A stretch of 64,000 bases of DNA from an uncultured Gammaproteobacteria bacterium (GTDB lineage Bacteria; Patescibacteriota; Microgenomatia; UBA8517). Where the stretch lies: positions 1,188 to 65,187 of the forward strand of contig CAZIPM010000004.1 of assembly GCA_964541395.1 (NCBI GenBank), written 5' to 3'. Below are positions 14,875 to 62,264 of this stretch, piece by piece; positions within the stretch are counted from its first letter, which is position 1; every line of letters begins with the position of its first letter. The notes below the pieces were generated by a model that saw only the letters and a program-made list of their open reading frames with translations, was not told the origin of the DNA and did not search any database. The position numbers and the translations under genes were made by a program.

Positions 14875-14949
14875 AGCTGGGGAATTTCACCCCATTCCTT
14901 AAACACAATCCTTAAACGTAATTACAATTTATGTTAAACTTTTTGTAAA

Positions 14950-37683: not shown

Positions 37684-38361
37684 ATGAAAACACCAATTGA
37701 ATATATAAAAGAAGCCTGGAAAATCTATACAGATAAGAAGAACTTTAGGTTTTTTGCCAGAGTAATGGCAATTGTGACAGTACTTTCTGGGATTTTGAGT
37801 TATGTAATGGGTTATTTCTACCCGTTCAAATATCCAGCACAAAGTATTGACTATTCCAATCCTAGGGAATTAGGACTATTTATAATCTTGGTCGTTGCTA
37901 TAAGTATTATTGGTTTATGGGGTAAATCTGTTGGATATATGGCTGTCATAAAAATGGGGAAAGATGAAAAAGAAATATTGAAACTCGGTTATCTTAAAAT
38001 GTGGAAGTTTTTCTTGATTATGCTGGTATCCGGATTAATTATTGTTTTGGGATTAGTAGCTCTTATTATCCCTGGCATAATTTTTTCGGTAAAATATTCC
38101 ATGTCTCCATTTTTGGTAATGGAAAAGAACTTGGGAGTAAAAGCAGCTTTGTCTGAAAGTTCAAAAATGGTTAAAGGGATATTCTGGAAAGTTTTTGGAC
38201 GATTCATTGTATTTGGTTTATTTACGATGTTAATTTCAATACTGGTAGATTTAGTTCCTTACGGTGGAGGATATTTGCTGACCACTTTTGCCGCTCCTTT
38301 TTTTCTTTTGCCTTTCTATCTCCTGTATAAAGACGTGGGGTTGAGGAACTCCGGTAGTTGA
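37684..38361 (+). CDS. polytopic membrane protein, hypothetical
   Basis: Several TM helices; 3' end overlaps convergent PBP gene by ~110 nt. Confidence 0.4.
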   Translation: MKTPIEYIKEAWKIYTDKKNFRFFARVMAIVTVLSGILSYVMGYFYPFKYPAQSIDYSNPRELGLFIILVVAISIIGLWGKSVGYMAVIKMGKDEKEILKLGYLKMWKFFLIMLVSGLIIVLGLVALIIPGIIFSVKYSMSPFLVMEKNLGVKAALSESSKMVKGIFWKVFGRFIVFGLFTMLISILVDLVPYGGGYLLTTFAAPFFLLPFYLLYKDVGLRNSGS

Positions 38362-40632: not shown

Positions 40633-40674
40633 GACATAATTCTAACATTATAGTGTGAGAGTGAAAAGAAGATA

Positions 40675-40908
40675 TTAACCTATCGGACGGGGAGAAAATT
40701 CTCTGGGTTTAAGACACTTGTCGAAATCTTTTACAGTTTCTCCTCCTTCACTGCAAGACCGGACAACTTTAAATGTCCATGAATCTTCGAGAGATTGACC
40801 GGAATCAACCATAAATCCGTTTTCTGTAGTTAAGGTCGCCATTTCCCTCTGGTTGTGTTGAGTTACATCAGTACCCAATAAACAAATACTACATCTTTTG
40901 TTTGTCAT
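40675..40908 (-). CDS. small Cys-containing hypothetical protein
   Basis: 77-aa ORF between the two PBP genes; may be spurious. Confidence 0.25.
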   Translation of the reverse strand: MTNKRCSICLLGTDVTQHNQREMATLTTENGFMVDSGQSLEDSWTFKVVRSCSEGGETVKDFDKCLKPREFSPRPIG

Positions 40909-40945
40909 GCCGCGTATTATACAAAATTATACTTGTAGATTCAAC

Positions 40946-43204
40946 TTAATTTACTCTCAAAGGATACTTTAATGTTGCAGAACTGGAGGATACAGGACAG
41001 GTTAAACAATATGTTGCTCCTGTTGGGTCCGTATAAAATGTCTTGTTTTGCGCCTCTACCTGTTCTGGTAAAGCTTCTTCGTTTGCTACTTGGCCAGTAT
41101 CTTTGAATATAAACACATCTTTATTACTAACATTGTTTGTTTTTGGAACAGTTCCAGACATAAAGTATTCAAATCTGGTGGGACAACCAGGATTTCCCGG
41201 ATCTGATGATAGAACAGCACCGCCTGTGTCCGAACAAATTGTGGCACCAATTACATCTTCAGGTTGTAATGGCCAAGCATGACCATCATCATCAGGGTCG
41301 TACGTCCCTTTTTCTGCTTTATCCAAAACTTCTTTTATTATTTTATTCCAGATTGGGGAAGCCCCGGAAACTCCTGACACTGCACCACTCATAGGGGAGT
41401 TGTCATTATTTCCTACCCAAACTACGGCAACCGCGTATTTGGTATAACCGATTGTCCAGTTATCACGTCTGTCATTGGTAGTTCCTGTTTTTACGGATGC
41501 TTCGGGATGTCCTTTGACATTTAAAAATGAAGAAGACCCAAAAGCCTGTGATCTGGCATTGTTGTCATGAAGGATATGAGAAATCAAAAAGCTAACATTT
41601 GTATCTAGAACTCTTTCTCCGGAAAGTTTTAATTCTTTAATATCTACTTCTTCCAAAACTTTACCTTTCCAGTTTTCAACTTTGGTAACGGCAATTAGCG
41701 GTTGTTTTATTCCTTCATTGGCAAAGACACCAAACGCCTGAGCCATGTCATAAGGTTTGACTTCGCCGCCCCCTAAAGTTAAAGAAAGACCATAACGATC
41801 AGGATCCTTGAAAGTAGTCAGTCCCATATCTTTTGCAAAATCGACAAAATTAGTAATGCTATTAACAGCTAATACTTTTACCGCTGGGATATTGTATGAA
41901 TTTCCCAGTGCAAATCTGGTTTGGACCAGCCCGTGATAACCGCCGTCATAATTGACCGGGCAATAGGGTTTTTGACCGATAACGGAAAAACAGGTCGGAA
42001 CATCAATAAAAGTAGTTGCTGCAGTAATCTTTTTATCTTTTAGAGCTAATGCATAATTAAGCGGTTTAATAGATGAACCCGGTTGTCTCTCTCTGAAAAT
42101 AATATTTACTTTACCGTCTTCATCATTGGCAAAATAATCTTTACTTCCGACCATGGCCAGGATTTCTCCGGTTGAAGGATGTGTTATTACGGCTGCGCCG
42201 TTGCCAACATTCTGTTTTACCAGTTTGCCAACTTCGGTAGCTACTGCTTCCTGTGCAAAATTTTGTAGATCCAGATCCAGTGTGGTTGTAACCCTTAGGC
42301 CTCCTTGTTCAACAATTTTTTCTCCGTATTTTTCAACCAGTTGATCTTTGATCCATAATGCAAAATGGGGAGCAGCAGGTGCTTTAATCTCGGCATAGAT
42401 TAACTCTTCTTCTAATGCTTTGTTTTTTTCTTCTTCATTTATATATCCTGCTTTGATCATTTGTGAAAGTACTTCTTTTTGTCTTTCTTTTGCCAGTTCA
42501 GGATGCGCTCCGAATGGAGAATATCGGGTTGGACTTTGGGGTAGACCTGCAATAAGAGCAGCCTGTGCCAGAGTTAAATCTTTAGCCGGTTTACCGAAAT
42601 AAAGTTCAGATGCACTTTCAATTCCGTAAGCTGTTGAACCGTAAGGAATTTGATTTAAGTAAAGCTCTAGTATTTGGTGTTTACTGTAAATACCTTCAAC
42701 AACTACGGTCAAAAAAAATTCTCTAACCTTTCTTCTAATTGTTCTTTCGGGAGTTAACAGGGAATTTTTAACTAATTGTTGTGTTAGGGTAGAACCACCT
42801 TCCAATTTCCCGCGGGTGACTATTTTCCAAGCTGCCCGGGCAATACCTGTAAATGAAAAACCATAGTGTTTGTAAAATTCCTTATCCTCTATTGCTATAG
42901 TTGCATTTTTAACATAGTCAGGCAGGTCATCAAGTTTAACAGGAGAACTTCTTTTATCTGCATAAATTTCGTAAATCAATTTACCGTTTCTGTCTAAAAG
43001 CTTTGTCGAGACAGGTATATCAGTAGAATATAGTTTGGTAGGAAGGGGGATTCCCCAAAAAAGCCAAAATGAAAATGAGATTAAGACCGTAAAAAAAATA
43101 ACTTTTTTTCTGTTTTTTTCCACTGCAAAGAAATTTTTAACTTTTGTAAGATATCCTTCCTTGGTAATATTAGGGCTGATTTTGTTGATTCTTATCATTA
43201 TCAA
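40946..43204 (-). CDS. class A penicillin-binding protein (PBP1A paralogue)
   Basis: GT51 IAIEDKEFYKHYG...GGSTLTQQLVKN; SSIKPL and KTGTT. Confidence 0.95.
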   Translation of the reverse strand: MIMIRINKISPNITKEGYLTKVKNFFAVEKNRKKVIFFTVLISFSFWLFWGIPLPTKLYSTDIPVSTKLLDRNGKLIYEIYADKRSSPVKLDDLPDYVKNATIAIEDKEFYKHYGFSFTGIARAAWKIVTRGKLEGGSTLTQQLVKNSLLTPERTIRRKVREFFLTVVVEGIYSKHQILELYLNQIPYGSTAYGIESASELYFGKPAKDLTLAQAALIAGLPQSPTRYSPFGAHPELAKERQKEVLSQMIKAGYINEEEKNKALEEELIYAEIKAPAAPHFALWIKDQLVEKYGEKIVEQGGLRVTTTLDLDLQNFAQEAVATEVGKLVKQNVGNGAAVITHPSTGEILAMVGSKDYFANDEDGKVNIIFRERQPGSSIKPLNYALALKDKKITAATTFIDVPTCFSVIGQKPYCPVNYDGGYHGLVQTRFALGNSYNIPAVKVLAVNSITNFVDFAKDMGLTTFKDPDRYGLSLTLGGGEVKPYDMAQAFGVFANEGIKQPLIAVTKVENWKGKVLEEVDIKELKLSGERVLDTNVSFLISHILHDNNARSQAFGSSSFLNVKGHPEASVKTGTTNDRRDNWTIGYTKYAVAVVWVGNNDNSPMSGAVSGVSGASPIWNKIIKEVLDKAEKGTYDPDDDGHAWPLQPEDVIGATICSDTGGAVLSSDPGNPGCPTRFEYFMSGTVPKTNNVSNKDVFIFKDTGQVANEEALPEQVEAQNKTFYTDPTGATYCLTCPVSSSSATLKYPLRVN

Positions 43205-43231
43205 GTAAAAAATGATTATTAAGTCTCTATA

Positions 43232-43501
43232 TTGTATACTACAGGCATGAAACTTGGAAATTTTAAAAGTGCTGAAGAAGCAGCTGAAGCACTAATGGGT
43301 GTAACTAATGGACATCAACACGCTTTAGGTTCAATACTGGAACTCGCTTCTTTAGAAGAAATGGACCTTAAAAAAGCAATTGATTTTGTCAAAGAACGTG
43401 GAGTACCTTCTGATAAAACAGAAATAATTGGTTGGTGGCGTGAAAATATGAACAAAATCCGAGGCCAGGTGATAATGAAGGGTGGAGAGTTTGGAGAGTA
43501 A
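43232..43501 (+). CDS. hypothetical protein
   Basis: 89-aa ORF overlapping next gene start. Confidence 0.35.
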   Translation: MYTTGMKLGNFKSAEEAAEALMGVTNGHQHALGSILELASLEEMDLKKAIDFVKERGVPSDKTEIIGWWRENMNKIRGQVIMKGGEFGE

Positions 43502-44033
43502 AGTGTATTATGTGTTTCAGATCATGGAATTTAATCTAGAAAAAAGAAATTGGTGGGGATATGTAGAAGAAGATCTGCAAAAACTTCTTGAATCTTCAGT
43601 TTTTCTACTCAATGTATCCAGAAGTTGGGGAGCAGACTTACCTAATGGTAGAAAGGCTTTTCATGATTATTCATTCTGTGTTTTTCCAGCAGCCAAAGCC
43701 TATGAAGGATTTTTGAAAAAGATGTTTTTTGATATGAAATTCATAACAGAAGCAGAATATTACGGTAAACATTTCAGAATCGGTAAAGCATTAAATCCGT
43801 TTCTGGAGAAAAAATACAGAAGAGAGAGTGTCTATGACAGAGTGGTAAATTATTGTGGTGGAAAAGAGCTCGCAGATATTTTATGGGAAGCATGGAAGAA
43901 TGGCAGGAATTTAGTTTTCCATTGGTTTCCGGAAGAAAAAAAAGTAATATCTTTTGAAGAAGCTGGAAAGTTAATAGAACAGATCCTGTCTGCAATGGAC
44001 AAAATGTCTACTGAGTGTAAAATAAAATTGTAG
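43482..44033 (+). CDS. hypothetical protein
   Basis: 183-aa ORF; no motif. Confidence 0.4.
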   Translation: MESLESKVYYVFQIMEFNLEKRNWWGYVEEDLQKLLESSVFLLNVSRSWGADLPNGRKAFHDYSFCVFPAAKAYEGFLKKMFFDMKFITEAEYYGKHFRIGKALNPFLEKKYRRESVYDRVVNYCGGKELADILWEAWKNGRNLVFHWFPEEKKVISFEEAGKLIEQILSAMDKMSTECKIKL

Positions 44034-44059
44034 CCGATAAAACCGTAACCAATAGTAAT

Positions 44060-44725
44060 ATGACTAAACCAGACGAAACTTCAAAAATTAAATCGCTTAA
44101 ATATGCGGTAAGTTTGGCTGCATATCTATTAATAGTTTGGGGATTCTATAGATTTCTGTTTCAACTACCCGAAAATGTCGAAGAAATTGTAATAAAACCC
44201 ATTATCTGGCTTATTCCTGTATTGTACCTGTTAAGAAAGGAAAGAGCCGGGCTGGAAAGTATTGGAGTAACTTTAAAAAATATTTTTCCTGCAGTTTATT
44301 TTGCGTTAGGGCTTGGAGTGTTTTTTGTCATAGAAGCGTTATTTATCAACTATATCAAATACGGTGGCAGTTTTAATTTTGGAGCGAATATAGGCAGTCT
44401 TCCTATCCTTACATCTTTTGGTCTGTCCTTTGCTACAGCATTTTCTGAAGAACTGACGTTCAGGGGATATATTCTAAGCCGTTTCTGGAATGCATTGAAA
44501 AATCCCTGGCATGCAATTATCGTAACCAGTTTATTGTGGGCTTTGGTACATGTACCAATCACTTTCTTTGTCTGGAAACTGGACCTGACATCAGCAATTA
44601 CATATCTGTTTTTAACTTTTATTTTTGGATTGGGATCTTCATTTGTTTATACCAAGACCAAGAATGTATTTTCTTCAATTTTACTTCACGTACTTTGGCA
44701 GTGGCCGATAATTTTATTTAGGTAA
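44060..44725 (+). CDS. CPBP-family intramembrane metalloprotease (CAAX protease-like)
   Basis: SEELTFRGY (EExxxR), LWALVH and LLHVLWQ motifs in TM helices. Confidence 0.75.
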   Translation: MTKPDETSKIKSLKYAVSLAAYLLIVWGFYRFLFQLPENVEEIVIKPIIWLIPVLYLLRKERAGLESIGVTLKNIFPAVYFALGLGVFFVIEALFINYIKYGGSFNFGANIGSLPILTSFGLSFATAFSEELTFRGYILSRFWNALKNPWHAIIVTSLLWALVHVPITFFVWKLDLTSAITYLFLTFIFGLGSSFVYTKTKNVFSSILLHVLWQWPIILFR

Positions 44726-44896
44726 TACTTTGTTGATACAAATATATTTTTACTGCACTTAGACTTGAAGATAAACATTTATTGTTTTAAACCACAGTAT
44801 TTTAAGAAGGCGAAATAATAGTTATGTCCAATGATAAAGAATTTGACAAGCTAGGCCTTAGTATACCAACTTCGAACAATCTGGCACAAAATTGCC

Positions 44897-45589
44897 TCAG
44901 AAAACAACAACTTCCTGCAGTTTTGCTCCATACATCTTTCCGTCTAGGGGGTCGATTCTTCCTAATTGAGGCTCTATCGAAACAATTCCTTCCAGCTTTC
45001 TATCTTTAAACACTTCGTTTAGTAGCAACCTGTCTTCCATAGGAGTTTTATCTACCGTTTGGTGCTCAGGAACTTGAAAAATTGAGTGACCGACATCTTT
45101 ATAGGGGTCAAGCATCTCCAGATTATTTTTATCTATTAAGTTTATTGCAAAGCTATATAAGTCGCCTACACTTTTTGCTTTGGTTTTAGCAAATACGGCA
45201 GTTTCCTTCACAATATCTCTAACGCCTTCTATAAGACTTTCATAGAATTCGTTATCTCCAATAACCACAGTGTCACACCAGTTGCTCCAAACAGTTCCTT
45301 TCATTGGGGTAGAGTCCACGAAAATAATATCATTTTCTCCGACCTTTACTTTGTCTGAGGGTAAATGAACCCTCCTGGTAATGGGTTTTGAAGTTGTTTC
45401 TCCTGAATAGATTAGGATTGGATACCAATGTTCAGAAAAACCAAAATCTGATAGTAAGGAGTAATATTTATCAGCGATTTCTTTTTCGGTTAGCCCTGGT
45501 GAAATCCATTTAGTGAGCGTGTTTGTAGCCTCGACTGTAAGTTTTTGCAACTCGTCGAATTGTTTTAGGTATTCCTCACGAGACAACAT
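44897..45589 (-). CDS. M24 (pita-bread) metallopeptidase-like protein, possibly degenerate
   Basis: DIIFVDSTPMKGTVWSNWCDTVVIG echoes the M24 D..D..G..SD..T block; only 230 aa. Confidence 0.35.
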   Translation of the reverse strand: MLSREEYLKQFDELQKLTVEATNTLTKWISPGLTEKEIADKYYSLLSDFGFSEHWYPILIYSGETTSKPITRRVHLPSDKVKVGENDIIFVDSTPMKGTVWSNWCDTVVIGDNEFYESLIEGVRDIVKETAVFAKTKAKSVGDLYSFAINLIDKNNLEMLDPYKDVGHSIFQVPEHQTVDKTPMEDRLLLNEVFKDRKLEGIVSIEPQLGRIDPLDGKMYGAKLQEVVVF

Positions 45590-45680
45590 TAAATGATGTT
45601 AGCACTTGGAGGCAATAAATGCAGGCATAAAAAGAAAAGAACCGGTTGACGTAGTTTAATCATTTAGAGCAATTTGACTT

Positions 45681-45995
45681 TTGCAGAAAGAGAGAGTAAT
45701 ACTGACTTTAATGATTGATGTTCCAAAAAATATTGATTTCGAAATAGCAGAAGATGAAAATGGATTTATTTATGAACATAAGTTTCCCGATTCTTTTGCA
45801 ACTTATGAGTTTCTAGATACCACTTCAGAAAATCAAGATGGTGTAGTTCATTCAATTCATAATGCTAGAAAAACATCTAGGCTTTCTGGACAATCCGGAA
45901 AAATACAATTTCGATCCGAAAGTGATCCAATTGGAAGTGATAAATTCACAGGTAAAGCAGTTTCATATGGCGAATCTTCAACCCAAAAACTTTAA
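45681..45995 (+). CDS. hypothetical protein
   Basis: 104-aa ORF. Confidence 0.3.
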   Translation: MQKERVILTLMIDVPKNIDFEIAEDENGFIYEHKFPDSFATYEFLDTTSENQDGVVHSIHNARKTSRLSGQSGKIQFRSESDPIGSDKFTGKAVSYGESSTQKL

Positions 45996-46106
45996 AGGAA
46001 TTTAGAGGAATATACAGAGTTAGTCTTATTTTGAAAATATCCCTATTTAATTTCCCCTAAAATCCTATAAATTTTTTGCATCATTTGACAGACCAGCGTA
46101 CAATAG

Positions 46107-46742
46107 ATGATACCCATGCGGAAGCGATTTGCGGGTATTTTAACTTCATTACTAATGGCAATTGCCATATTTACGGTATCAATTATTAGAGGGGTTATGC
46201 CAAATTATGCATTTTCTCCACAGGTTCTATCGGACACAGTTGATACTCCAAGTACGATTAATATTGCCTATGATTTAATTTACCCGGGAAAGATATTGCC
46301 TGACCATCCTCTTTGGTATGTAAAAGCAATTCGGGATAAGATTGTACACTCATTAACTTTTAATCACATGTCTCGGGCAAAATTGGCACTTAAGTGTGCA
46401 GATAAAAGATTGCAAATGGCTCAGGAAATGTTTAAAAAAGGGAAACCGGATTTGGGAGTGGCAACATTGGAGAGAGCGGAACAGTATTTAGCAGAATCGG
46501 TAGATCATGCCAAGGAGGCAGAAAGTAGTGAAGAAAGTAAAGAATTTTTACGTACAGCCTCTCTGGCTGCTTTAAAGCATAGGGAAATTATTGAAGAAAA
46601 TATTCTCCCCCTTTCTCCTGAAGACCTCAAACCAATGATAGTAAAAACGGAAGATCTCTCCAAAATAAGCTACACAAAAACCCGAGACACCCTTCATTCT
46701 TACGGGATAACATCTCCAACTAATCCCTTCGAGTTGGATTAA
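46107..46742 (+). CDS. hypothetical membrane-anchored protein
   Basis: N-terminal TM then helical domain. Confidence 0.4.
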   Translation: MIPMRKRFAGILTSLLMAIAIFTVSIIRGVMPNYAFSPQVLSDTVDTPSTINIAYDLIYPGKILPDHPLWYVKAIRDKIVHSLTFNHMSRAKLALKCADKRLQMAQEMFKKGKPDLGVATLERAEQYLAESVDHAKEAESSEESKEFLRTASLAALKHREIIEENILPLSPEDLKPMIVKTEDLSKISYTKTRDTLHSYGITSPTNPFELD

Positions 46743-46884
46743 TTTAGGAGTTTAGTTATCTTTTTTTAGACAGGGGAATATCCAGCTTTTAATAAAATTT
46801 CCTCACAATTTCCTCAAGTAGTTTTTTCCAAGCTTGATTTACGCTTAACATGATATGATTCGTATCAAAAGTTGATAGTTGACG

Positions 46885-46931
46885 CACCACTTCTAGTGTT
46901 AGATTATCTGTTACGTCACTAGTTGTAGTGT
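46885..46931. promoter_or_regulatory. two candidate NrdR boxes upstream of nrdR
   Basis: TCACTAGTTGTAGTGT matches acaCwAtATaTwGtgt at 13/16; weaker GCACCACTTCTAGTGT ~31 bp upstream. Confidence 0.35.
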
Positions 46932-46976
46932 TTTTATGTTTCACAAGTGAAAAGATTTTTTGATTGAAATATTAAT

Positions 46977-47423
46977 ATGAATTGTCCTTTTTGTAACACA
47001 GCAGAAACTCAGGTTTTGGAGTCCAGAATTATTAATGAAGGGCAAGGAATAAGAAGAAGAAGAGAGTGTGGTAAATGTGGTAAACGCTTTACAACACATG
47101 AAGAAGTTAAAAAGTCGGTACTTTGGATAATCAAAAAAGATGGGAGGCGGGAACCCTTTGATAGAGAAAAGATTAAAAGGGGACTTTTAAGATCAATAGA
47201 AAAGAGACCTGTATCTTTAGATCTGGTAGAAGAAACGGTAAATGAAGTAGAGAGAGAACTATTAAAAGCACTTAAAGAGGAAGTACCAAGTAGAGTTGTA
47301 GGGAATGCAGTTTTAAAGAGACTGAAAAAGATTGACAAAGTAGCCTGGTTAAGATTTGCCAGCGTCTATTTGCAGTTTGAGGATTTGGAAGATTTTGAGA
47401 AATTAATAAACAGAAACTTATAA
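46977..47423 (+). CDS. nrdR: transcriptional repressor NrdR
   Basis: MNCPFCN...CGKCGKRF zinc ribbon plus ATP-cone. Confidence 0.95.
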   Translation: MNCPFCNTAETQVLESRIINEGQGIRRRRECGKCGKRFTTHEEVKKSVLWIIKKDGRREPFDREKIKRGLLRSIEKRPVSLDLVEETVNEVERELLKALKEEVPSRVVGNAVLKRLKKIDKVAWLRFASVYLQFEDLEDFEKLINRNL

Positions 47424-47481
47424 ACAGAAACGTATGAATATTAATAAATATTTAATGAAAATTATGTTATAACCAACAAAT

Positions 47482-50400
47482 ATGTCAAAAAATACCACAT
47501 CATTAAAATCTAAAAAATCAGTAAAAAAGAGTAGTAAATTGGAATTTAAAGATTTCACCGCTCCCTCATATGGTGAGATAAAGAATCTGTTAGATAAAAA
47601 ACTGGGAGTTCGACCAAAAAGACCGATAAACCTTCCTGAAGGAGATTGGACAGAACAGGCTTTAAAGGTCTTAAAAGAAAGATATTTGGTTAAAGACAAT
47701 AATTTAAGCCCTATTGAAACTCCCGAAGATATGATTTGGAGAGTTGCTTGGGAAGTGGCTTCTGCTGAAGTTAGATGGGGTGCGGGTAAACGTGAGGTAG
47801 AGAATTACGCCCGTGAGTTTTACAGTTTAATGAATTCACGAAAATTTTTGCCTAACTCACCAACCTTAATGAATGCAGGAACCGGTAACGGTCTTCAGTA
47901 CTCTGCATGCTTTGTTCTACCCGTTGAAGATTCAATGGAAGGAATATTTGATGCTATTAAATACCAGGCAATAATACATAAAACTGGTGGAGGAACAGGT
48001 TTTGCGTATTCAAGACTTCGTGAGAGTGGGTCTATTGTCAAAACTTCATCTGGCACTGCATCTGGTCCAGTTTCTTTTATGAAGATATTCGATGCTGCTA
48101 CAAACGAAGTTAAACAGGGAGGAAAAAGAAGGGGGGCAAATATGGGAATACTTAGAGTAGATCATCCTGATATTCTGGAATTTATCCATTGTAAAGAAGA
48201 AGGAGGAATTACAAACTTCAATATTTCAGTAGCTTTGACGGATTCTTTCATGAAAGCCTATCAGGAAGATAGAGATTATGATCTTATTAGTCCTAAATCA
48301 AGAAAAGTGGTAGGACAACTTAATGCCAAAAAAGTTTTTGATGAGATTGCGGATGGGGCTTGGAGGACAGGAGACCCAGGTTTAATTTTTATAGACAAGA
48401 TCAACAAAAGTACAGCAAATCCGGTTCCAATATTGGGTGATATTGAGGCTACCAACCCATGTGTGACAGGAGATACTCTAGTTTCCACAGATGAAGGTCT
48501 GGTGAGAATGAAGGATGTAGTTGAAAGTCATTTTGAAGGAGGTAAAAGACATGGAGGAAACATGGGGCTAATTATTGATAAAAGAACTCTTAAAATTGAT
48601 GATCTGGGAGTAACTGAAGGGAGAGCATTTAAATTTTTTGATAATGGAATAAAGGATACTTTGAGACTAACTACAAAAATGGGGTTTGAGTTAACAGGAA
48701 CTCTTGATCATAAAGTTCTGACACCAACTGGCTGGGTGGAGTTGAGTGATTTGAAAGAGGGTGGAAAAATTCTTATTCAAAGTGGGAAGGGTAAATTTTC
48801 TAAAAATCTGGAACTTCCATTTAAACCAGCACGCCCATTTTTTCCGAAAAAATGGAGTAAAGAATTGGGGGAGGCATTAGGATGGCTAGTTGGAGACGGT
48901 TGGTTAAGAAATGGAGATAAGAATTGCCGTGTTGGCTGGACTTTTGGTAAAAATGACATTGATAACCTGAAATATTTAAAGAACATTTTGAATAAATGGT
49001 ACGGAAGGAAAATAAATGAAGTCAGACGAGTGAGAAATACTTATCATTTGTCTTACCATGGTAAAGAATTTATCCAATTTTTTGAAAATCTCGGGATAGA
49101 ACCTGTGAAAGCTATTGATAAAAAAGTACCAGAGTTGATTTATTCTGCAACTGAAGATGCAGTTAAAGGCTTTTTAAGAGGACTTTTTACAGCAGATGGG
49201 ACTGTCAATTTCAGAATGGGCTTTAGTTCTTATGTAAGGCTTACAAGTAAATCAAGATTGCTTCTAAAAGGTGTCCAACAACTCTTACTAAATCTAGGTA
49301 TGATTTCACGAATTTATGACAGAAGTCGAAAACCACGAATAGGAGTTTTTGAATATATTAACAAACGGGGGAATAAAAGAAGTTACTCAACTGATGGAGT
49401 CTTGTATGAACTCCAGCTTTCGAAGGAGTCTGTAATGGTATTTCTGTCAGAAATAGGTTTTTTAAATGGGAGTCATAGTAAAGTTATCAAAAAGTTTGGC
49501 ACCAAGGGATATTATAAAGACAGATATGAAGATTATGTTGTAAATGTGGTTCCATCAGGTAAACAAAGAGTATATGATCTTACTGAGGAAAAAAGTTATA
49601 CGTTTATAACAAATGGGGTCGTAAGCTTCGACTGTGGGGAACAACCATTATACCCATTTGATGCTTGTAACTTGGGAAGTATATTTTTAACCTATTTTAT
49701 TAAAGATGGCCTGATTCAATGGGATGAACTTAAAGAAGTTACTAGGCAGTCAGTCAGGTTTTTGGATAATGTAATTGAGGTAAACCCATATCCGCTACAA
49801 CAAATAAGAAACACAGTTTTTGCCATAAGAAGAATTGGACTTGGAATAGGTGGTTGGGCCGACTTGCTACTCGAACTGGGAATCCAATACGATTCCAATG
49901 AAGCATTGGAATTAGGGGATAAATTAATGAAAACCATTCAAGATGAGGCTGTAGCCGAAACTCAAAAATTGGCAAAAATTAGAGGAGCCTTCCCACTTTT
50001 CCAAGGATCTATTTATAAAGACGAAAAACCAAGAAGAAACTCAACAGTTACCACCATTGCCCCCACAGGAACTATTTCAATAATTGCAGGATCTAGTTCG
50101 GGTATTGAACCTTTGTTTGCTGTTGCATTCCAGCACATAGTCAAAGATAAACATTTGGACAGAAGATTAACTTTTGTCAATCCAAAATTTGAACAGATTG
50201 CAAAAGAACAAGGTTTCTGGAGTCAGGAATTAATGAATAAGGTCGGGGAAAAAGGGGTGGTTAGACACATTGAAGAAGTACCTGAAAAAGTCAGAGCCAT
50301 GTTTGGTACTGCTCACGAAATAGATCCCGATTGGCATATTAAAACCCAAGCGGTCTTTCAAAAATATACGGAAAATGCAGTCAGTAAAACTATAAACCTG

Positions 50401-51171
50401 AGGCATGATGTTACAGTAGAAGATGTTAAATCTACTTATCTTCTGGCCTGGAATAGTGGTTGTAAAGGTATAACAATTTTCAGAGATGGTTGCAAAGATG
50501 TCCAGGTATTAAATTTAGGAGTTAATAACGGTGAAGCAAAGAAAGAAACCGTTCCTCAAGAACAGGTGTTTATTCAACCTGAACCCCTAAGACAAAGACC
50601 TTATGTAGTCAAGGGTTCAACTTACAGAATGAATACTCCTATGGGAACGGCATTTATTACCATTAATGAGGATTTTGAAGGTCAACCATTGGAGATATTC
50701 ATAAACGTCGGTAAAGCTGGATCTGATGTCGCTGCTATGGCTGAGGCTTTGGGAAGAACCATCTCAACAACATTGAAATTCAGGGGTAACATATCGGCTA
50801 AAGAAAAAGCCAGAGAAATAGCAGAACAACTTTCAGGTATAGGCGGAAGAAGATCAATCGGTTTTGGGCCTACCAAAATCAGATCATTACCTGATGCGAT
50901 AGCTGGAGCTATTTCCGTTCACTACAACATGGGCATTAACGGTTATCACAACAGCCCTAATATCTTTGGTGAATTAAACACAAAAGATCCCAAAAGTGAA
51001 GTGGTGGCTACAATACCAAGACTTAATGAACAAAAACAGGAAACCTTATTCATGGCAGCTACTATCCCAGTAGAAAGAGCAGGGGACATCTGTCCTTCCT
51101 GTGGTGCTTCTGCCTTAGTTTTTGAAGAAGGTTGTTCCAAATGTCATGCATGCGGGCATAGTGAGTGTTAA
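47482..51171 (+). CDS. nrdJ: ribonucleotide reductase, class II (adenosylcobalamin-dependent, NrdJ-like), intein-containing
   Basis: Conserved NP|CGEQPL thiyl-radical region split by an intein; C-terminal CPSCG...CSKCHACG tail; 838-aa extein. Confidence 0.85.
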   Translation: MSKNTTSLKSKKSVKKSSKLEFKDFTAPSYGEIKNLLDKKLGVRPKRPINLPEGDWTEQALKVLKERYLVKDNNLSPIETPEDMIWRVAWEVASAEVRWGAGKREVENYAREFYSLMNSRKFLPNSPTLMNAGTGNGLQYSACFVLPVEDSMEGIFDAIKYQAIIHKTGGGTGFAYSRLRESGSIVKTSSGTASGPVSFMKIFDAATNEVKQGGKRRGANMGILRVDHPDILEFIHCKEEGGITNFNISVALTDSFMKAYQEDRDYDLISPKSRKVVGQLNAKKVFDEIADGAWRTGDPGLIFIDKINKSTANPVPILGDIEATNPCVTGDTLVSTDEGLVRMKDVVESHFEGGKRHGGNMGLIIDKRTLKIDDLGVTEGRAFKFFDNGIKDTLRLTTKMGFELTGTLDHKVLTPTGWVELSDLKEGGKILIQSGKGKFSKNLELPFKPARPFFPKKWSKELGEALGWLVGDGWLRNGDKNCRVGWTFGKNDIDNLKYLKNILNKWYGRKINEVRRVRNTYHLSYHGKEFIQFFENLGIEPVKAIDKKVPELIYSATEDAVKGFLRGLFTADGTVNFRMGFSSYVRLTSKSRLLLKGVQQLLLNLGMISRIYDRSRKPRIGVFEYINKRGNKRSYSTDGVLYELQLSKESVMVFLSEIGFLNGSHSKVIKKFGTKGYYKDRYEDYVVNVVPSGKQRVYDLTEEKSYTFITNGVVSFDCGEQPLYPFDACNLGSIFLTYFIKDGLIQWDELKEVTRQSVRFLDNVIEVNPYPLQQIRNTVFAIRRIGLGIGGWADLLLELGIQYDSNEALELGDKLMKTIQDEAVAETQKLAKIRGAFPLFQGSIYKDEKPRRNSTVTTIAPTGTISIIAGSSSGIEPLFAVAFQHIVKDKHLDRRLTFVNPKFEQIAKEQGFWSQELMNKVGEKGVVRHIEEVPEKVRAMFGTAHEIDPDWHIKTQAVFQKYTENAVSKTINLRHDVTVEDVKSTYLLAWNSGCKGITIFRDGCKDVQVLNLGVNNGEAKKETVPQEQVFIQPEPLRQRPYVVKGSTYRMNTPMGTAFITINEDFEGQPLEIFINVGKAGSDVAAMAEALGRTISTTLKFRGNISAKEKAREIAEQLSGIGGRRSIGFGPTKIRSLPDAIAGAISVHYNMGINGYHNSPNIFGELNTKDPKSEVVATIPRLNEQKQETLFMAATIPVERAGDICPSCGASALVFEEGCSKCHACGHSEC
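48460..49632 (+). mobile_element. intein (391 aa) with LAGLIDADG-type homing-endonuclease blocks
   Basis: Starts Cys (ATNP|CVTGDTLV); LGWLVGDGW and LRGLFTADGTV dodecapeptide blocks; ends ...VVSFD|CGEQPL. Confidence 0.85.
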
Positions 51172-51257
51172 AAGAAAATGAGTTTAATTATAAACGGAGT
51201 TATATTATCTTCGTGGGATAATACTACAGTATTTAATTGTATATCTTGAAGGAGAAG

Positions 51258-51776
51258 TTATATTTGCCCAACTTTCATAGGACGAAAACTAAGATAAGGT
51301 GGCTGATCTTTGATAGCTTTTTTCGGATAAAACATAACTTTACCCCGTGGTCCGGTTGCTACCCAAAAGCCGTTCGGATATTCATCTAAATGGATTGTTT
51401 GTCCCGAACCGGCAGACAATTGCTGGCTGCGTTTACCCGATCCCCAAATCATAACACTTTTGTCCAGGTTGGTAAGAAATACGTCGTTGGTTATATCCTG
51501 GTCTCTAACACCAAACGACAATGCAAATTCGTTAGGTTGTACTCCCGGGTCTCTCATGTCCGTGCCGTCACTTTCAGTAATTTTAATTAGGAGTGTTACG
51601 GGTGAAAGGAAAGGATGACCTTCATTCTCATCAGGATTGCCTCCATAAATGACCGTTACTCTTCCTCCATATTTTTGAGAGTCTAATGGATATGCCCGTT
51701 TACTGTCCGGCGACAGAACCGGAGTTCTGTATCCTTTAACCTCTAGACGTTTTTCCGTAATATCAACTCTATCCAT
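51258..51776 (-). CDS. hypothetical protein
   Basis: 172-aa beta-rich ORF. Confidence 0.4.
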   Translation of the reverse strand: MDRVDITEKRLEVKGYRTPVLSPDSKRAYPLDSQKYGGRVTVIYGGNPDENEGHPFLSPVTLLIKITESDGTDMRDPGVQPNEFALSFGVRDQDITNDVFLTNLDKSVMIWGSGKRSQQLSAGSGQTIHLDEYPNGFWVATGPRGKVMFYPKKAIKDQPPYLSFRPMKVGQI

Positions 51777-51844
51777 TGCTTTTTATTATATACTTTCTAT
51801 GAAAAATAAAAACGTCAGCATATTATTATCATTTAATACAAGAT

Positions 51845-52336
51845 ATGGCAGTCTATACAAAAACAGGGGATAAAGGAAAAACAGGAACATTTGGTGGCAA
51901 AAGAATTTCCAAAGCTTCACGGCTCATAGCCGCAATTGGAGCTATTGATGAACTTAATTCATACTTGGGGATAATCGGGGGATTGGTAGAAATACAAAGA
52001 AATCTTTTTACTATTAACTCAATGTTGTCTGGTGCAAAACTTGTTTTTCCAAAAGATGCAGTTAAAAAGTTGGAAAAAGAAATTGATGAAATGGAAAGTA
52101 AATTACCTGTTCTTCAAAATTTCATTATTTATGGTGGTGATAAGAAAGCAACTCAGATTTATTATGCCAGGGCACTCACAAGAAGAGCAGAAAGGAGCTT
52201 GGTAGCAATATCCGGAGGAACTCATCCCAACAGAGAAAAGCTGATGTATTTAAACAGACTGTCAGATTACTTATTTATGTTAGCCCGGTATACAAACTTC
52301 AAAAAGAAGGCAAACGAGGTGACATGGAAGAGCTAG
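51845..52336 (+). CDS. PduO-type ATP:cob(I)alamin adenosyltransferase
   Basis: MAVYTKTGDKGKTGTFGGKRISK N-terminal signature. Confidence 0.8.
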   Translation: MAVYTKTGDKGKTGTFGGKRISKASRLIAAIGAIDELNSYLGIIGGLVEIQRNLFTINSMLSGAKLVFPKDAVKKLEKEIDEMESKLPVLQNFIIYGGDKKATQIYYARALTRRAERSLVAISGGTHPNREKLMYLNRLSDYLFMLARYTNFKKKANEVTWKS

Positions 52337-52424
52337 ACTGCTTTTCTATATTTTGAACCAGCATTTGTGTGACGTTTAAACTCAATGCCACATATTCTTT
52401 ACTCACAGCTTTGAATGCTTGTTG

Positions 52425-53030
52425 CTAGGTTTTACCATCCTCTATCTCCTTACCTTTAAACATTGGTAAAATCTCCCTACCTACTATTTGCCCCACATTT
52501 CTTTTTAACTCACTTAACATTTCCTTACTTTTTTCTAACTCGTGAGCCATTACTACCTGATGGTATAAAGCGACATAATGTTGGGGACCATTATAAGGAT
52601 CAAAAATCACGATTTGCGGGTCAATACCAATTTGAGTAGCTACGTCAAGCGAGTCTAGGGCAAGGTACTGCGTTGATACCTCAACTGCTTCGTGTCGTAA
52701 GAATATTTTCCGTACGTCAGCATCTCTTACCAACTCAGTATTTAAAATTATCTTTGCGCCCCTCATGGTGCGTACACCCCAAGCAGGTGTTTGGCAGGCG
52801 CGTTCGATTATCTCATCCTTAAATGTTTCAAAGAATTCAAGGTCTGTTTCTTTTATATAGTCAACAATCTGGTTTTGAGCACCAACCAACGCCTCAGATT
52901 CATACTTCTTAATCCTTTCCAAGTCTACAGGTTTTAAATTAATTACATCTACATGAGCTGGAATTTCCCCAACAGATTGGATTGAGTCTACTTTATCCAT
53001 ATACGTATCAACACATTGTATCAATAACAA
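52425..53030 (-). CDS. hypothetical protein
   Basis: 201-aa ORF; no motif. Confidence 0.4.
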   Translation of the reverse strand: MLLIQCVDTYMDKVDSIQSVGEIPAHVDVINLKPVDLERIKKYESEALVGAQNQIVDYIKETDLEFFETFKDEIIERACQTPAWGVRTMRGAKIILNTELVRDADVRKIFLRHEAVEVSTQYLALDSLDVATQIGIDPQIVIFDPYNGPQHYVALYHQVVMAHELEKSKEMLSELKRNVGQIVGREILPMFKGKEIEDGKT

Positions 53031-53088
53031 CCTAACAAATAAATTGAGATATCAGATAAAAACATAAGTTTGACAAATGTGATGTAAC

Positions 53089-53355
53089 ATGTTACATTTA
53101 GTACATATGTTACTTAATCGAAGAACAAACGTTTTATTTGATGAGATTGATTACACTACCCTTGTTAGAATTTCTAAAAAAGAGGGAAAAACAATAGGGG
53201 AACTTGTACGTCAAGCTGTAAGAAAGACTTATAAAACGAGAAAAAAACTCACAGATAATGAAAAGGCATTTCGTATAATTAAAAAGGTAACACGAGGACT
53301 TGATTTTTCAGGAATTAATTACAAGGAATTGATTAATAATGGGAGAAAAAATTGA
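53089..53355 (+). CDS. ribbon-helix-helix antitoxin-like protein
   Basis: RTNVLFDEIDYTTLVRISKKEGKTIGELVRQAV strand-helix-helix pattern. Confidence 0.45.
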   Translation: MLHLVHMLLNRRTNVLFDEIDYTTLVRISKKEGKTIGELVRQAVRKTYKTRKKLTDNEKAFRIIKKVTRGLDFSGINYKELINNGRKN

Positions 53356-53743
53356 AATCAAGACAATTTTAGTTGACTCTTCGTTTATATTATCAACTTT
53401 ACTGCCAGATGAGACCATACTCGCTCAATTTAAAGAACATATAGATAGCTTTAGGAGGAATGAAGTATTTTTTAAATCTTGTGAGCTTTTAAAATATGAA
53501 ATTTGCAATAGTTTAAAATCTGCTATCCTACAGAAAAGAATCAGTGCTGAAAAGGCAATGATTTTGTATTCAGCCTTTGTATTGATGAAGATTGAATATT
53601 TAGACATAGATTTCAAAAAAACTCTAAATCTTTCAATAAAGCATGATATATCTTTTTACGATGCTACTTATTTATATCTGGCAAAAACATATAAAAGTAA
53701 ATTATTAACTTTAGATAAAAAACTGGCTAAAATTTCTCAATAA
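53339..53743 (+). CDS. PIN-domain toxin (VapC-like)
   Basis: IKTILVDSSF N-terminal Asp and C-terminal FYDATYLYLAKT...LLTLD. Confidence 0.65.
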   Translation: MGEKIEIKTILVDSSFILSTLLPDETILAQFKEHIDSFRRNEVFFKSCELLKYEICNSLKSAILQKRISAEKAMILYSAFVLMKIEYLDIDFKKTLNLSIKHDISFYDATYLYLAKTYKSKLLTLDKKLAKISQ

Positions 53744-53773: not shown

Positions 53774-54112
53774 ATGGGTATATTTCCTGAAAAAGAACCA
53801 AAACTTAATGTTGTTGAGGAACATGATCAAGAAGCATCAGCTTTAAGTATCGAACATAAAGAAGTACTTACTCCAATACCTACTAATTTTAAAGCACAGG
53901 TTTATGATGACAATGGTAAACCTTTAATTTCAACACCTCAGAGCCAAACAGTAGTTATTACTATTCCTGCTGTAAACGAAGAAGAACTTAAAGCCGATGC
54001 AAAAGGAAATATCGAAGAAACCTGGACTTGGTCGGCAGTCTACTGGATCAGAAGAATTTTAAAGGCCTTACATTTTAGTAAAAAATATGTTTTTAAAGGA
54101 GAAGAAAAATGA
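53774..54112 (+). CDS. hypothetical protein, first gene of ATPase module
   Basis: 112 aa; ATGA-coupled to the large ATPase gene. Confidence 0.4.
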   Translation: MGIFPEKEPKLNVVEEHDQEASALSIEHKEVLTPIPTNFKAQVYDDNGKPLISTPQSQTVVITIPAVNEEELKADAKGNIEETWTWSAVYWIRRILKALHFSKKYVFKGEEK

Positions 54113-56445
54113 TAAATCCAATTTTTCTAGATATAAACACATTAGCCTATCTTTTTATAGGTCTAATTTTCTTTATCTTTTTTTTGGCAATATTAGGTTA
54201 TGCAGGTTTTATCTTATTCAGGTATAGAGGCAGAGAGCTTAGTTCAATTGATTCGGTACTTTTGCAGATTTCAGTTCCCCGTTTAAATGAAATAAAAATT
54301 GATGCCATGGAACAATTGATCTCTTCTTTATACTCCATTAAAAAGGGAGGTTGGAAGCAAAAATTTTCAATTCAGCCCACTATTTCCTTTGAAATTGTAG
54401 CCCGGGCAGAGGATATCAAGTTTTATGTTTGGACACCTGTGGAGTTTAAAGATTTATTGGAAAAGCAAATACATGGTGCTTATTCTGATGCAGAAGTGAT
54501 GGAAGCAGAAGAAGTTAACATCTTTGAATCCGAAGGTAAAGTTGCCTATAAATCATTACAATTGGGAAAAGCCAACTTTTATCCTTTAAAAACTTTTAAA
54601 GATTTGACTACCGATATTTTAGCTTCAGTGACATCCTCAATGGCCAAAATGGGCGCCAATGAATCATCTTTAGTTCAGATTTTAATTTCTCCTGCAGAGT
54701 CTGACTGGCAAAAACAGGGAGGTAAGTTTATCTCCGATACTAAAAAGCAGGAAAGCAGTTCTGAAAGCGCCAAATATTCGGTGTCAGGTAAAACCTTGGA
54801 AGCTGTTGAAAACAAAATCAGTAAACCAGGTTTTGAGACTTCAATCAGATTAGTTGTGGTTGCCCCAACATCTGAGATTGCCAAAATGCATCTAACCAAC
54901 ATAGCTTCATCAATCGGTCAAACATCTGGGGAGCTGAACAATCTTGGTAGCCGAAAAATCTATAACAAATCAAATTTTGTTCATGATGTTTTATACAGAT
55001 ATCATCCGATGTTTAATATCATGAAAAATCACGTTTCAATTTTAAATTCGGAAGAACTGGCAACTATTTTTCATTTTCCAAACAGACAAATAACTACTCC
55101 ACATATTCACTGGTTGCATAGCAAAACAGCACCAGCACCTGCTGAAATACCTGAAGATGGACTCTATATAGGTCATAGCCTTTATAGGGGTGTCAAAAGA
55201 AAAATATGTATGGGGGACGACGACAGAAGAAGACACCTATATATTGTAGGAGCAACAGGAACAGGAAAAACTGAACTACTTAAAAGTATGATCATGCAGG
55301 ATATAAATGCAGGTAAAGGAATTTGTTTTATGGATCCTCATGGTGACGCTGTTGAGGATCTTCTTAAAAGAATCCCTCCCGAAAGAGCAGAAGACGTTAT
55401 TTACTTCAGACCATCAGATACACTCCGTCCGATGGGACTTAACCTCTTGGAGGCGAACACAGAAGACCAGAAACACTTTGTGGCAACCTCAGTCATTAAT
55501 ATGATGTACAAACTGTTTGATCCTTATAAAACAGGTATAGTTGGACCCCGTTTTGAACATGCAGTCCGAAATGCCATGTTGACCGTCATGTGTGAACCGG
55601 GTGCAACGTTTATAGAGGTTATGAGAGCCTTAACTGATGCCAGATATGTTCAGGAACTTCTACCTAAAGTGGATGATCCGATAATAAGACGATACTGGAC
55701 AGACCAAATTGCCCAAACTTCTGATTTTCACAAATCTGAAGTTTTGGATTATATCGTATCTAAATTCGGAAGGTTTGTTACTAATAAAATGATCAGAAAT
55801 ATCATTGGTCAGTCAACCTCATCTTTTTCTTTCAGGGAGGTTATGGATCAAGGCAAAATACTTCTTATCAACCTTGCCAAAGGTGAACTGTCAGAAGAGA
55901 ACTCCAACTTTTTGGGACTCATCTTGGTTCCCCGAATCTTAATGGCAGCTATGAGCCGAACTGATACTCCAGAAGACCAAAGACGTGATTTCTATCTCTA
56001 TGTTGATGAATTTCAAAACTTTGCCACCCCTGACTTTGCAGTTATATTATCAGAGGCCAGAAAGTATAAATTAAATCTGACTGTTGCCAACCAGTTTATA
56101 GGTCAGGTAGAGGAAGAAGTAAAAAATGCAGTTTTTGGTAATGTAGGTACAAAAATATCCTTCAGAGTAGGAGTAACTGATGCAAATTATCTGCAGCACG
56201 AGTTTAGTCCTGTTTTCGGAGAGGATGATCTTTTGAATGTAGAAAGATTTCATGCCTTTGTTAAAACTATAGTTAAAAATCAACCTATGACTCCTTTTTC
56301 CATAGATACTACTTTGGATATAGATAAAATCAAGGCAACCGAGGACTCAAGAGTAGCAGAGATAATTAAAGAAATGAGCCGGCTTAAGCATGGTAGGGAT
56401 GTGAGGCTGGTTGATGCAGAAATAACCAGGCGGGCAAAATTATAA
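54109..56445 (+). CDS. TraD/VirD4-like coupling-protein ATPase (HerA/FtsK-like P-loop) with N-terminal TM hairpin
   Basis: Two N-terminal TM helices; Walker A GATGTGKT; Walker B DFYLYVDEFQNF. Confidence 0.7.
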   Translation: MINPIFLDINTLAYLFIGLIFFIFFLAILGYAGFILFRYRGRELSSIDSVLLQISVPRLNEIKIDAMEQLISSLYSIKKGGWKQKFSIQPTISFEIVARAEDIKFYVWTPVEFKDLLEKQIHGAYSDAEVMEAEEVNIFESEGKVAYKSLQLGKANFYPLKTFKDLTTDILASVTSSMAKMGANESSLVQILISPAESDWQKQGGKFISDTKKQESSSESAKYSVSGKTLEAVENKISKPGFETSIRLVVVAPTSEIAKMHLTNIASSIGQTSGELNNLGSRKIYNKSNFVHDVLYRYHPMFNIMKNHVSILNSEELATIFHFPNRQITTPHIHWLHSKTAPAPAEIPEDGLYIGHSLYRGVKRKICMGDDDRRRHLYIVGATGTGKTELLKSMIMQDINAGKGICFMDPHGDAVEDLLKRIPPERAEDVIYFRPSDTLRPMGLNLLEANTEDQKHFVATSVINMMYKLFDPYKTGIVGPRFEHAVRNAMLTVMCEPGATFIEVMRALTDARYVQELLPKVDDPIIRRYWTDQIAQTSDFHKSEVLDYIVSKFGRFVTNKMIRNIIGQSTSSFSFREVMDQGKILLINLAKGELSEENSNFLGLILVPRILMAAMSRTDTPEDQRRDFYLYVDEFQNFATPDFAVILSEARKYKLNLTVANQFIGQVEEEVKNAVFGNVGTKISFRVGVTDANYLQHEFSPVFGEDDLLNVERFHAFVKTIVKNQPMTPFSIDTTLDIDKIKATEDSRVAEIIKEMSRLKHGRDVRLVDAEITRRAKL

Positions 56446-58664: not shown

Positions 58665-58737
58665 GGCCCGGTAACTCAGTGGTCAGAGTGCCGTCCTTAT
58701 AAGACGGAAGTCGATGGTTCGAGCCCATCCCGGGCCA
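58665..58737 (+). tRNA. tRNA-Ile (anticodon UAU)
   Basis: Cloverleaf folded by hand: GGCCCGG acceptor, perfect anticodon stem CCGTC/GACGG with loop CTTATAA (TAT), T-loop TTCGAGC. Confidence 0.8.
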
Positions 58738-58741
58738 CATT

Positions 58742-61980: not shown

Positions 61981-62264
61981 TGCGGGGTAGTGTACGGCTG
62001 CACGCAAGGCTTAACAAAATGGGCCACTCTGATTTTCATTAATCAGGTGAAACTTAGCTGTATCGGGGAACTCCTTATTAAAAAGGACAATCCCGAGGCA
62101 ATCCTTTAGAGTTATTATGAATAACTTGCAGGGCGAGTCCGTAGAGACTAAACGCTAAGGCATGGTTTTATTAAACCTAGCAAGATATAGTCCGGCACTC
62201 CTAGTAATTGGAGATTACAGAAATGCATAATCTTGCAGGCTGGGTTCAACTCCCAGCCCCGCAA
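61981..62264 (+). tRNA. tRNA (anticodon CAU after splicing) interrupted by a group I intron
   Basis: Exons 61981-62011 and 62226-62264 fold as a tRNA; U1:A72. Confidence 0.75.
62012..62225 (+). ncRNA. group I self-splicing intron (214 nt, ORF-less)
   Basis: P1 GGCU|...GGCC with U.G at splice site; P10 AUG:CAU; P2 CUGAUU/AAUCAG; R AGUCCGUAGAGACUAAACG (62136-62154); S AAGAUAUAGUCC (62182-62193); terminal omega-G at 62225. Confidence 0.8.

Follow-up and report, generated by a model that had tools for sequence, protein, structure and literature searches.

Chy RIR1, the intein in the class II ribonucleotide reductase (RNR) of Carboxydothermus hydrogenoformans, reportedly ends in Asp345 and splices, and the substitutions D345N/Q/E/A are said to have abolished its splicing. 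An InBase-derived table (PMC3359363) lists this intein (gi 78044854) at residues 271-615 (345 amino acids, aa), before C616 and at the site TNPCGEQ. The table holds 27 entries with the site NPCGE, making NP/CGE (here and below, the slash marks the insertion point) a classic hot spot of RNR inteins. In reviews, Asp and Gln termini are described as able to cyclize, with Amitai, Dassa & Pietrokovski 2004 (J Biol Chem 279:3121) as the cited source, and Asp termini are treated as a variation on step 3 of class 1 splicing. Here, we analyzed a 64-kb stretch of DNA (64,000 nucleotides [nt] of contig CAZIPM010000004.1, GenBank assembly GCA_964541395.1; called the window in the following), in which an Asp-ending intein interrupts the RNR gene nrdJ. 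We estimate the probability that it is a functional class 1, endonuclease-bearing intein of the Chy RIR1 type, resident in nrdJ, at roughly 85%. Coordinates throughout are positions within the window, and features lie on the plus strand unless the minus strand is named.

Host gene, intein boundaries, and predicted fold

The nrdJ precursor is encoded by an open reading frame (ORF) of 1229 aa at positions 47482-51171, which is unbroken over 3.7 kb and has one intein inside (ORF call, Pfam, structure-sequence alignment, and NCBIfam). The precursor is matched by the Pfam families Ribonuc_red_lgN, Ribonuc_red_lgC (1e-122), and TSCPD, and its exteins pass two NCBIfam equivalog models, NF006417 (994.8 bits; cutoff 961) and TIGR02504 (656.6 bits; cutoff 399.95). 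By these profile matches, the ORF is a class II, adenosylcobalamin (AdoCbl)-dependent RNR, NrdJ, as the initial annotation had assigned it. The N-extein (aa 1-326; 47482-48459), delimited by junction reading and alignment, ends in GDIEATNP, and the Asn of its NP is part of the conserved NPCGE finger-loop motif. The C-extein (49633-51171; Pfam and alignment) runs from CGEQPL through the stop codon; it includes the TSCPD domain and carries a zinc-ribbon-like CxxC...CxxC tail at its C-terminus. At the other end of the ORF, the first ~55 residues (47482-47650) form a Lys/Ser-rich extension (MSKNTTSLKSKKSVKKSSK...) that is unmatched in the aligned RNR structures, and the true start codon of nrdJ may lie further downstream.

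The intein comprises 391 aa (precursor aa 327-717; 48460-49632), with a LAGLIDADG endonuclease domain inserted into a HINT splicing domain, as indicated by Pfam, NCBIfam, alignment, and AlphaFold. It starts with CVTGDTLV and ends with VYDLTEEKSYTFITNGVVSFD, after which the extein continues with CGEQPL; the insertion site reads ATNP/CGEQPL. The alignment with the Thermotoga maritima NrdJ structure (1xje) extends to query residue 327 (STNPC322) and is taken up again at 717/718 (P321-C322-G-E), with 390-391 residues inserted relative to 1xje and no host residue lost. Since neither missing nor surplus residues appear in this alignment, the host protein is continuous across the insert, and removal of the intein restores the NP-CGEQPL motif. 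The insertion between NP and CGEQPL, first read by eye, is thereby supported by a structure. Precursor residue C718 (49633-49635) is Cys+1, the putative second splicing nucleophile; it aligns with C322 of T. maritima NrdJ (1xje) and with residue 408 of Lactobacillus leichmannii RTPR (1l1l). C408 (L. leichmannii) and C322 (T. maritima) are known as the finger-loop thiyl-radical cysteines of these enzymes. After splicing, C718 would serve as the thiyl-radical Cys of the RNR finger loop, and the intein indeed sits at this loop, as was claimed initially.

The register of the C-terminal junction is set by three independent alignments. Residues 104-139 of the Npu DnaB mini-intein (4o1r, 142 aa) align to intein residues 353-388, and by this alignment the Ser-Phe-Asp of the intein stands opposite the last three residues of 4o1r. 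Homologous inteins at the same site read ...YDLTEPxTHSFIANGIVVHN/CGEQPL, with a spacing equal to that of the window intein. Asn385-Gly386 is the NG of block G, conserved in an alignment of 85 relatives (70 ending in Asp and 15 ending in Asn or Gln), and position 391 is Asn or Gln in the relatives that do not end in Asp. Judged by these alignments, the intein ends in Phe390-Asp391, in register with the canonical His-Asn, and the initial reading of the junction stands.

The junctions were also compared with a public scaffold (L092; ENA ERZ28564304, scaffold_4744), a separate record from the same population that matches positions 41570-53678 (12.1 kb) at 99.7% identity. Both junction sequences are the same as in the window. 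Within nrdJ, the scaffold differs only by a 10-N gap at window positions 49331-49348, and this gap breaks nrdJ into two ORF calls of 648 and 578 aa in that record. The scaffold is also N-gapped at window position 45310; the window sequence closes both gaps.

Conservation of the splicing residues was assessed in the alignment of 85 relatives. The N-terminal splicing nucleophile Cys1 in block A (48460-48462), block B with T81-L-D-H84 (Thr B:7 and His B:10; 48700-48711), Asp373 at F:4, and Cys+1 are invariant in all of them. Blocks F and G are located at 49570-49632. In block F, Tyr380 stands in place of the His; in block G, Ser389 occupies position -3, Phe390 replaces the penultimate His, and Asp391, encoded by GAC (49630-49632), replaces the terminal Asn. 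The two LAGLIDADG motifs are LGWLVGDGW (intein residues 140-148; 48877-48903) with catalytic Asp146 and LRGLFTADGTV (residues 239-249; 49174-49206) with catalytic Asp246. These catalytic Asp residues are kept in 65 and 62, respectively, of the 70 Asp-ending relatives.

Profile and structure comparisons agree with this anatomy. The Pfam family LAGLIDADG_3 matches the intein at 4.4e-20, and the NCBIfam model intein_Nterm (TIGR01445) scores 41.8-44.1 bits (cutoff 24.5), starting exactly at precursor residue 327, which is Cys1. An AlphaFold2 model of the intein, built with 66 aligned sequences, reached a predicted local distance difference test (pLDDT) score of 94.5 and a predicted template modeling (pTM) score of 0.94. 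The top Foldseek matches of this model in the PDB are the TliVMA and PhoVMA inteins, PI-PfuI, PI-PkoII, and PI-SceI (E, 4e-23 to 1e-13). Mini-inteins match the splicing half, and I-DmoI structures match the endonuclease half with a TM score of ~0.7 when normalized to the target. According to the model, the insert is a HINT-fold intein with a LAGLIDADG endonuclease domain that is I-DmoI-like and pseudo-dimeric. The Cys at the start, the 391-aa length, and both motifs given in the initial annotation are in line with sequence, Pfam, and predicted fold.

In the definition of class 1 inteins, block G ends in His-Asn, whereas the window intein ends in Phe390-Asp391. Reviews document that class 1 inteins vary at this end, with Asp or Gln as the terminal residue or without the penultimate His, so the deviating end does not exclude membership in this class. 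Assignment to class 2, whose members have no N-terminal nucleophile and start with Ala1, was rejected because the intein starts with Cys1. Class 3, which is marked by the WCT residues Trp B:12, Cys F:4, and Thr G:5, was rejected because F:4 is Asp373 and G:5 is Ser. The guanine-plus-cytosine (GC) fraction is 0.353 in the intein, 0.377 and 0.392 in the exteins, and 0.361 in the window; with values this close, composition shows no sign of recent acquisition.

Asp-ending inteins at the NP/CGEQ site

GTDB, with one genome per species, was scanned with a degenerate DNA pattern for N-G-x4-D-C-G-E-Q-P. The pattern itself fixed NG and Asp and left position -3, the penultimate position, and the block F position free. 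It matched 91 loci (rough chance expectation, ~9 loci, given 16 fixed and 5 two-fold positions over ~1.2e12 positions). Inteins at the same NP/CGEQ site of class II RNRs, ending in x-x-D/CGEQP, account for 84 loci, and the remaining 7 are unrelated. The same pattern had no match in viral contigs. C. hydrogenoformans is not among the loci matching NG-x4-D-CGEQP in the GTDB scan; its block G or its extein perhaps departs from the pattern.

Bacterial hosts of Asp-ending inteins include Omnitrophota, Planctomycetia, Patescibacteria, Caldisericota, Acidobacteriota, and Chloroflexota, and archaeal hosts include Woese-, Pace-, Nano-, and Aenigmarchaeota, Methanoperedens, Heimdallarchaeum, and Bathyarchaeota. 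The loci come in part from complete genomes and cultured isolates, among them the Firmicutes Fervidicola ferrireducens, Thermosediminibacter litoriperuensis, and Thermovorax subterraneus. In the initial annotation, inteins ending in Asp had been called rare. This holds for inteins overall; at the NP/CGEQ site, in contrast, they form a known and widespread family found in 84 species-level genomes.

Residues were tallied for the 82 Asp-ending loci that could be scored. The penultimate residue is Leu in 68, Phe in 7, Met in 3, Tyr in 2, and Arg in 2 of them, and His in none. Position -3 is mostly Ser (74; Val, 7; Thr, 1). At the block F His position, Leu (50), Tyr (16), Phe (10), Lys (4), Ile (1), and Val (1) were found, again without a single His. 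The terminal Asp is encoded by GAT in 63 loci and by GAC in 19. Most of these inteins finish with Ser-Leu-Asp, and the window intein with Ser-Phe-Asp. In contrast, the block F His is kept in 12 of the 15 Asn- or Gln-ending relatives, and relatives ending in Ser-Asn retain it.

Endings at the same site were also counted by eye in 41 sampled protein-database relatives with a readable C-terminal junction; these relatives are fragments of up to 685 aa, many beginning at an internal Met. His-Asn was the most frequent ending (14), followed by His-Gln (10), Ser-Asn (8), x-Asp (6), Gly-Gln (2), and Ala-Asn (1). Asn, Gln, and Asp termini thus all occur at the NP/CGEQ site in different relatives. In a neighbor-joining distance tree, which has no support values, the Asn-ending relatives P0016 (His-Asn), P0007 (Ser-Asn), and P0002 (Ser-Asn) nest among Asp-ending inteins. 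This branching suggests that the terminal residue switched more than once at this site. The Asp terminus is a family trait and not an error.

The nearest relatives of the window intein are L049 (Patescibacteria, ending in VSFD), L042 (VSYD), and L090 (VSLD). They comprise 391-393 aa, are 62-66% identical to the window intein, and group with it in the tree. Identity to the 345-aa and 372-aa group (L086 and L072) is ~34%. Asp-ending inteins of 345 aa are present at the same site in Firmicutes and other genomes (L013, L036, L038, and L086). Between L049 and the window, the inteins are 66% identical and the exteins just 41-42%, as would be expected if the intein had moved horizontally between nrdJ genes that have diverged.

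Some nrdJ genes in the scan are far longer than an RNR with a single intein would need to be. In six loci (L033, L035, L005, L009, L084, and L043), the frame that encloses the match stays open for 1665-2194 aa, and in some of them more than 1100 aa precede the Asp-ending junction. Given this length and the deep position of the junction, these genes probably contain further inteins at other sites.

Splicing mechanism and alternative explanations

From the anatomy, register, fold, family membership, and conservation described above, we infer, by homology, splicing, its anhydride chemistry, and endonuclease activity. In step 1, Cys1, aided by Thr81/His84 and Asp373 (F:4), would turn the Pro326-Cys1 peptide bond into a thioester. 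In step 2, Cys+1 (C718) would take over the N-extein by trans-thioesterification. In step 3, the branched intermediate would be resolved at the terminal Asp391 instead of an Asn. Most probably, the side-chain carboxyl of Asp391 would attack the backbone carbonyl of the same residue, and the resulting cyclic anhydride would then be hydrolyzed. In the pocket for this step, both helper histidines are replaced by hydrophobic or aromatic residues (Tyr380 and Phe390), with Ser389 gained. In step 4, an S-to-N shift would rebuild the NP-CGEQPL finger loop. Because the intein parts the radical Cys+1 from the Asn of NPCGE, the precursor cannot work as a reductase until spliced. The LAGLIDADG domain, with both catalytic Asp residues in place, is probably an active homing nuclease; it would cut intein-free nrdJ at the conserved NPCGEQ coding sequence. 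Such homing into intein-free nrdJ would account for the occurrence of the family in many different phyla.

Several points weigh against a functional class 1 intein of the Chy RIR1 type. The D345A variant of Chy RIR1 is said to have still cleaved at the C-terminus, so simple Asp cyclization may not be the whole mechanism. Homology between Chy RIR1 and the window intein was deduced from the identical site, the 345-aa length class, and the related thermophilic Firmicutes hosts. The Pfam model Intein_splicing scores 35.0 bits, just under its cutoff of 35.8. The NCBIfam model intein_Cterm (TIGR01443) scores 12.7 bits with the intein alone and 16.5 bits with flanks (cutoff 15.6). Such marginal scores of the C-terminal models are expected because His-Asn is absent. 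Finally, a second RNR may exist elsewhere in the genome, beyond the 64-kb window, and would relax the need for splicing; on the supporting side, no other RNR gene was found among the large ORFs of the window.

We consider it unlikely, while giving it some weight, that the Asp-ending subfamily, devoid of both histidines, resolves the branch otherwise than by Asp cyclization. Hydrolysis assisted by Ser389 would be one such route; branch resolution may also respond to pH, temperature, or redox state, in which case RNR activation would be conditional. The strict correlation of Asp with loss of His (0 of 82) and with Ser at -3 (74 of 82) speaks for a different chemistry, as do a review that allows other mechanisms and the reported behavior of Chy RIR1, in which D345N abolished splicing and D345A still gave cleavage at the C-terminus; in addition, Cys1 and Cys+1 could form a redox trap. 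On the other side stands the classification of Asp termini in reviews as a variation of class 1 step 3. If a different chemistry were true, the 84-genome family would be a natural comparative data set for working it out, and if it were gated, activation of the B12-dependent RNR of the cell would depend on the environment.

It is improbable that the intein is degenerate and does not splice, with nrdJ dead or decaying and deoxynucleoside triphosphates supplied by another RNR or by salvage. The absence of both helper histidines and of the terminal Asn and the marginal C-terminal model scores would be compatible with decay, and just 64 kb of the genome is visible. However, the 3.7-kb frame is intact, and all other catalytic residues are present. 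The same residues recur in 84 genomes despite 34-66% sequence divergence, among them the genomes of Thermosediminibacter, Fervidicola, and Thermovorax. The exteins exceed the NrdJ equivalog cutoffs, nrdJ is flanked by nrdR and a cobalamin adenosyltransferase gene, and the family member Chy RIR1 reportedly splices.

A misplaced junction can practically be dismissed. In this reading, Asn385 (...FITN) would be the last intein residue, and the extein would carry six inserted residues, GVVSFD, ahead of the catalytic Cys, the case that the initial annotation had named as its refutation. An Asn does sit six residues upstream of the proposed junction, but T. maritima NrdJ aligns as NPC/GE with zero extra residues, and intein-free NrdJ proteins lack the additional six. 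Moreover, the +1 residue would be Gly, which is not a nucleophile. Asn385-Gly386 is the block G NG in all 85 relatives and stands in the same spacing as in canonical relatives (NG-I-V-V-H-N/C), and the 4o1r alignment sets Phe390-Asp391 against the last two residues of that mini-intein.

A sequencing or assembly artifact, in which a true AAC (Asn) was misread as GAC (Asp) or the junction is chimeric, has next to no probability: the two codons are one transition apart and the L092 scaffold is gapped elsewhere in the intein, but this scaffold carries the identical junction, contrary to the mis-assembly considered initially, the closest relative L049 likewise ends in VSFD, and Asp is found in 84 other genomes, with both codons and with correlated changes at three further positions.

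Genomic context and comparison with known inteins

Upstream of nrdJ, nrdR (46977-47423, plus strand) encodes a repressor of RNR genes with a Zn-ribbon and an ATP-cone. The gap between the two genes is 58 nt, and they probably belong to one operon. Upstream of nrdR, at 46888-46933 (plus strand), two imperfect palindromes, CACCACTTCTAGTGTT and TCACTAGTTGTAGTGTT, were seen by eye, ~30 bp apart. In sequence, they resemble tandem NrdR boxes; if they are real, the nrdR-nrdJ operon would be autoregulated. Downstream of nrdJ, a PduO-type cob(I)alamin adenosyltransferase (Cob_adeno_trans; 51845-52336, plus strand) is a plausible supplier of the AdoCbl cofactor of NrdJ.

Farther away, an AdoCbl-II (cobalamin) riboswitch aptamer was detected at 14840-14911 on the minus strand (44.4 bits; gathering score 36.5). 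It lies at the 5' end of an ORF without a Pfam match (13927-14874, minus strand); in a genome dependent on a B12 RNR, this ORF could serve B12-related transport or uptake. A group I intron (Rfam RF00028; 62002-62214) apparently interrupts a tRNA gene at 61982-62263 (plus strand). By eye, the 5' exon spans 61982-62011, the intron ~62012-62225 (with a final G), and the 3' exon 62226-62263. After splicing, the sequence of the anticodon loop would be CT-CAT-AA, which corresponds to a tRNA(CAU) for elongator Met or Ile2; ARAGORN gave no call for the split gene at 61982-62263. A tRNA-Ile with the anticodon TAT is encoded at 58665-58738 (plus strand). Such a tRNA is uncommon in bacteria, in which AUA is usually read by a lysidine-modified CAU tRNA. 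The window further contains two adjacent class A penicillin-binding proteins (transglycosylase plus transpeptidase; 38251-43204, minus strand), a VirD4/TraG-like coupling protein (54109-56445, plus strand), and an overlapping small gene pair (53089-53743, plus strand) that, by eye, looks like a toxin-antitoxin module.

The window intein is a genuine member of an already studied, widespread intein family and not a new oddity. Since an Asp-terminated intein at this site was characterized in 2004, the window intein alone adds little biochemically, and the comparative data on the family may be more useful than this single sequence. Literature searches for inteins in RNRs of the candidate phyla radiation returned no papers. 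For annotation, nrdJ is best called as a single intein-containing gene, the junction of which is barely detected by standard C-terminal intein models. The co-substitutions fixed in Asp-ending inteins (block F His to Leu, Tyr, or Phe; position -3 to Ser; penultimate His to Leu or Phe) and the presence of Asn-, Gln-, and Asp-terminated variants at one site offer a good natural system for the evolution of branch resolution.

Chy RIR1 and the window intein share insertion site and host enzyme. They differ in length (345 and 391 aa, respectively), in sub-branch, the window intein grouping with L042, L049, and L090, and in host, a thermophilic Firmicute for Chy RIR1 and an uncultured low-GC bacterium for the window. 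In the Asp-ending Chy intein, substitution by Asn is reportedly not tolerated.

Canonical His-Asn inteins at the NP/CGE site of NrdJ, such as Aave RIR and Aeh RIR1, have the same insertion point as the window intein and are clearly homologous to it, with 28-37% full-length identity. They share Cys1, block B TxxH, the block F Asp, Cys+1, and the LAGLIDADG endonuclease. Unlike the window intein, they retain His in block F (T-H-S-F) and have His-Asn as their last two residues; the window intein carries Tyr, Ser, Phe, and Asp at the equivalent positions.

The best structural matches, PI-PfuI, TliVMA, and PhoVMA (1dq3, 7qss, 7qsu, and 7qst), all contain a LAGLIDADG endonuclease within a HINT domain, as does the window intein. 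However, they are inserted at other sites and show 16-21% sequence identity, and the VMA inteins reside in a different host protein. CIV RIR1 of Chilo iridescent virus is also located directly before the thiyl-radical Cys, at the site SNL/CSEI (PMC3359363). Like the window intein, it has a terminus other than Asn, and it splices, according to a review, in which substitution by Asn is also described as tolerated. In contrast to the window intein, CIV RIR1 resides in a class I RNR and ends in Gln, the cyclization of which would give a glutarimide.

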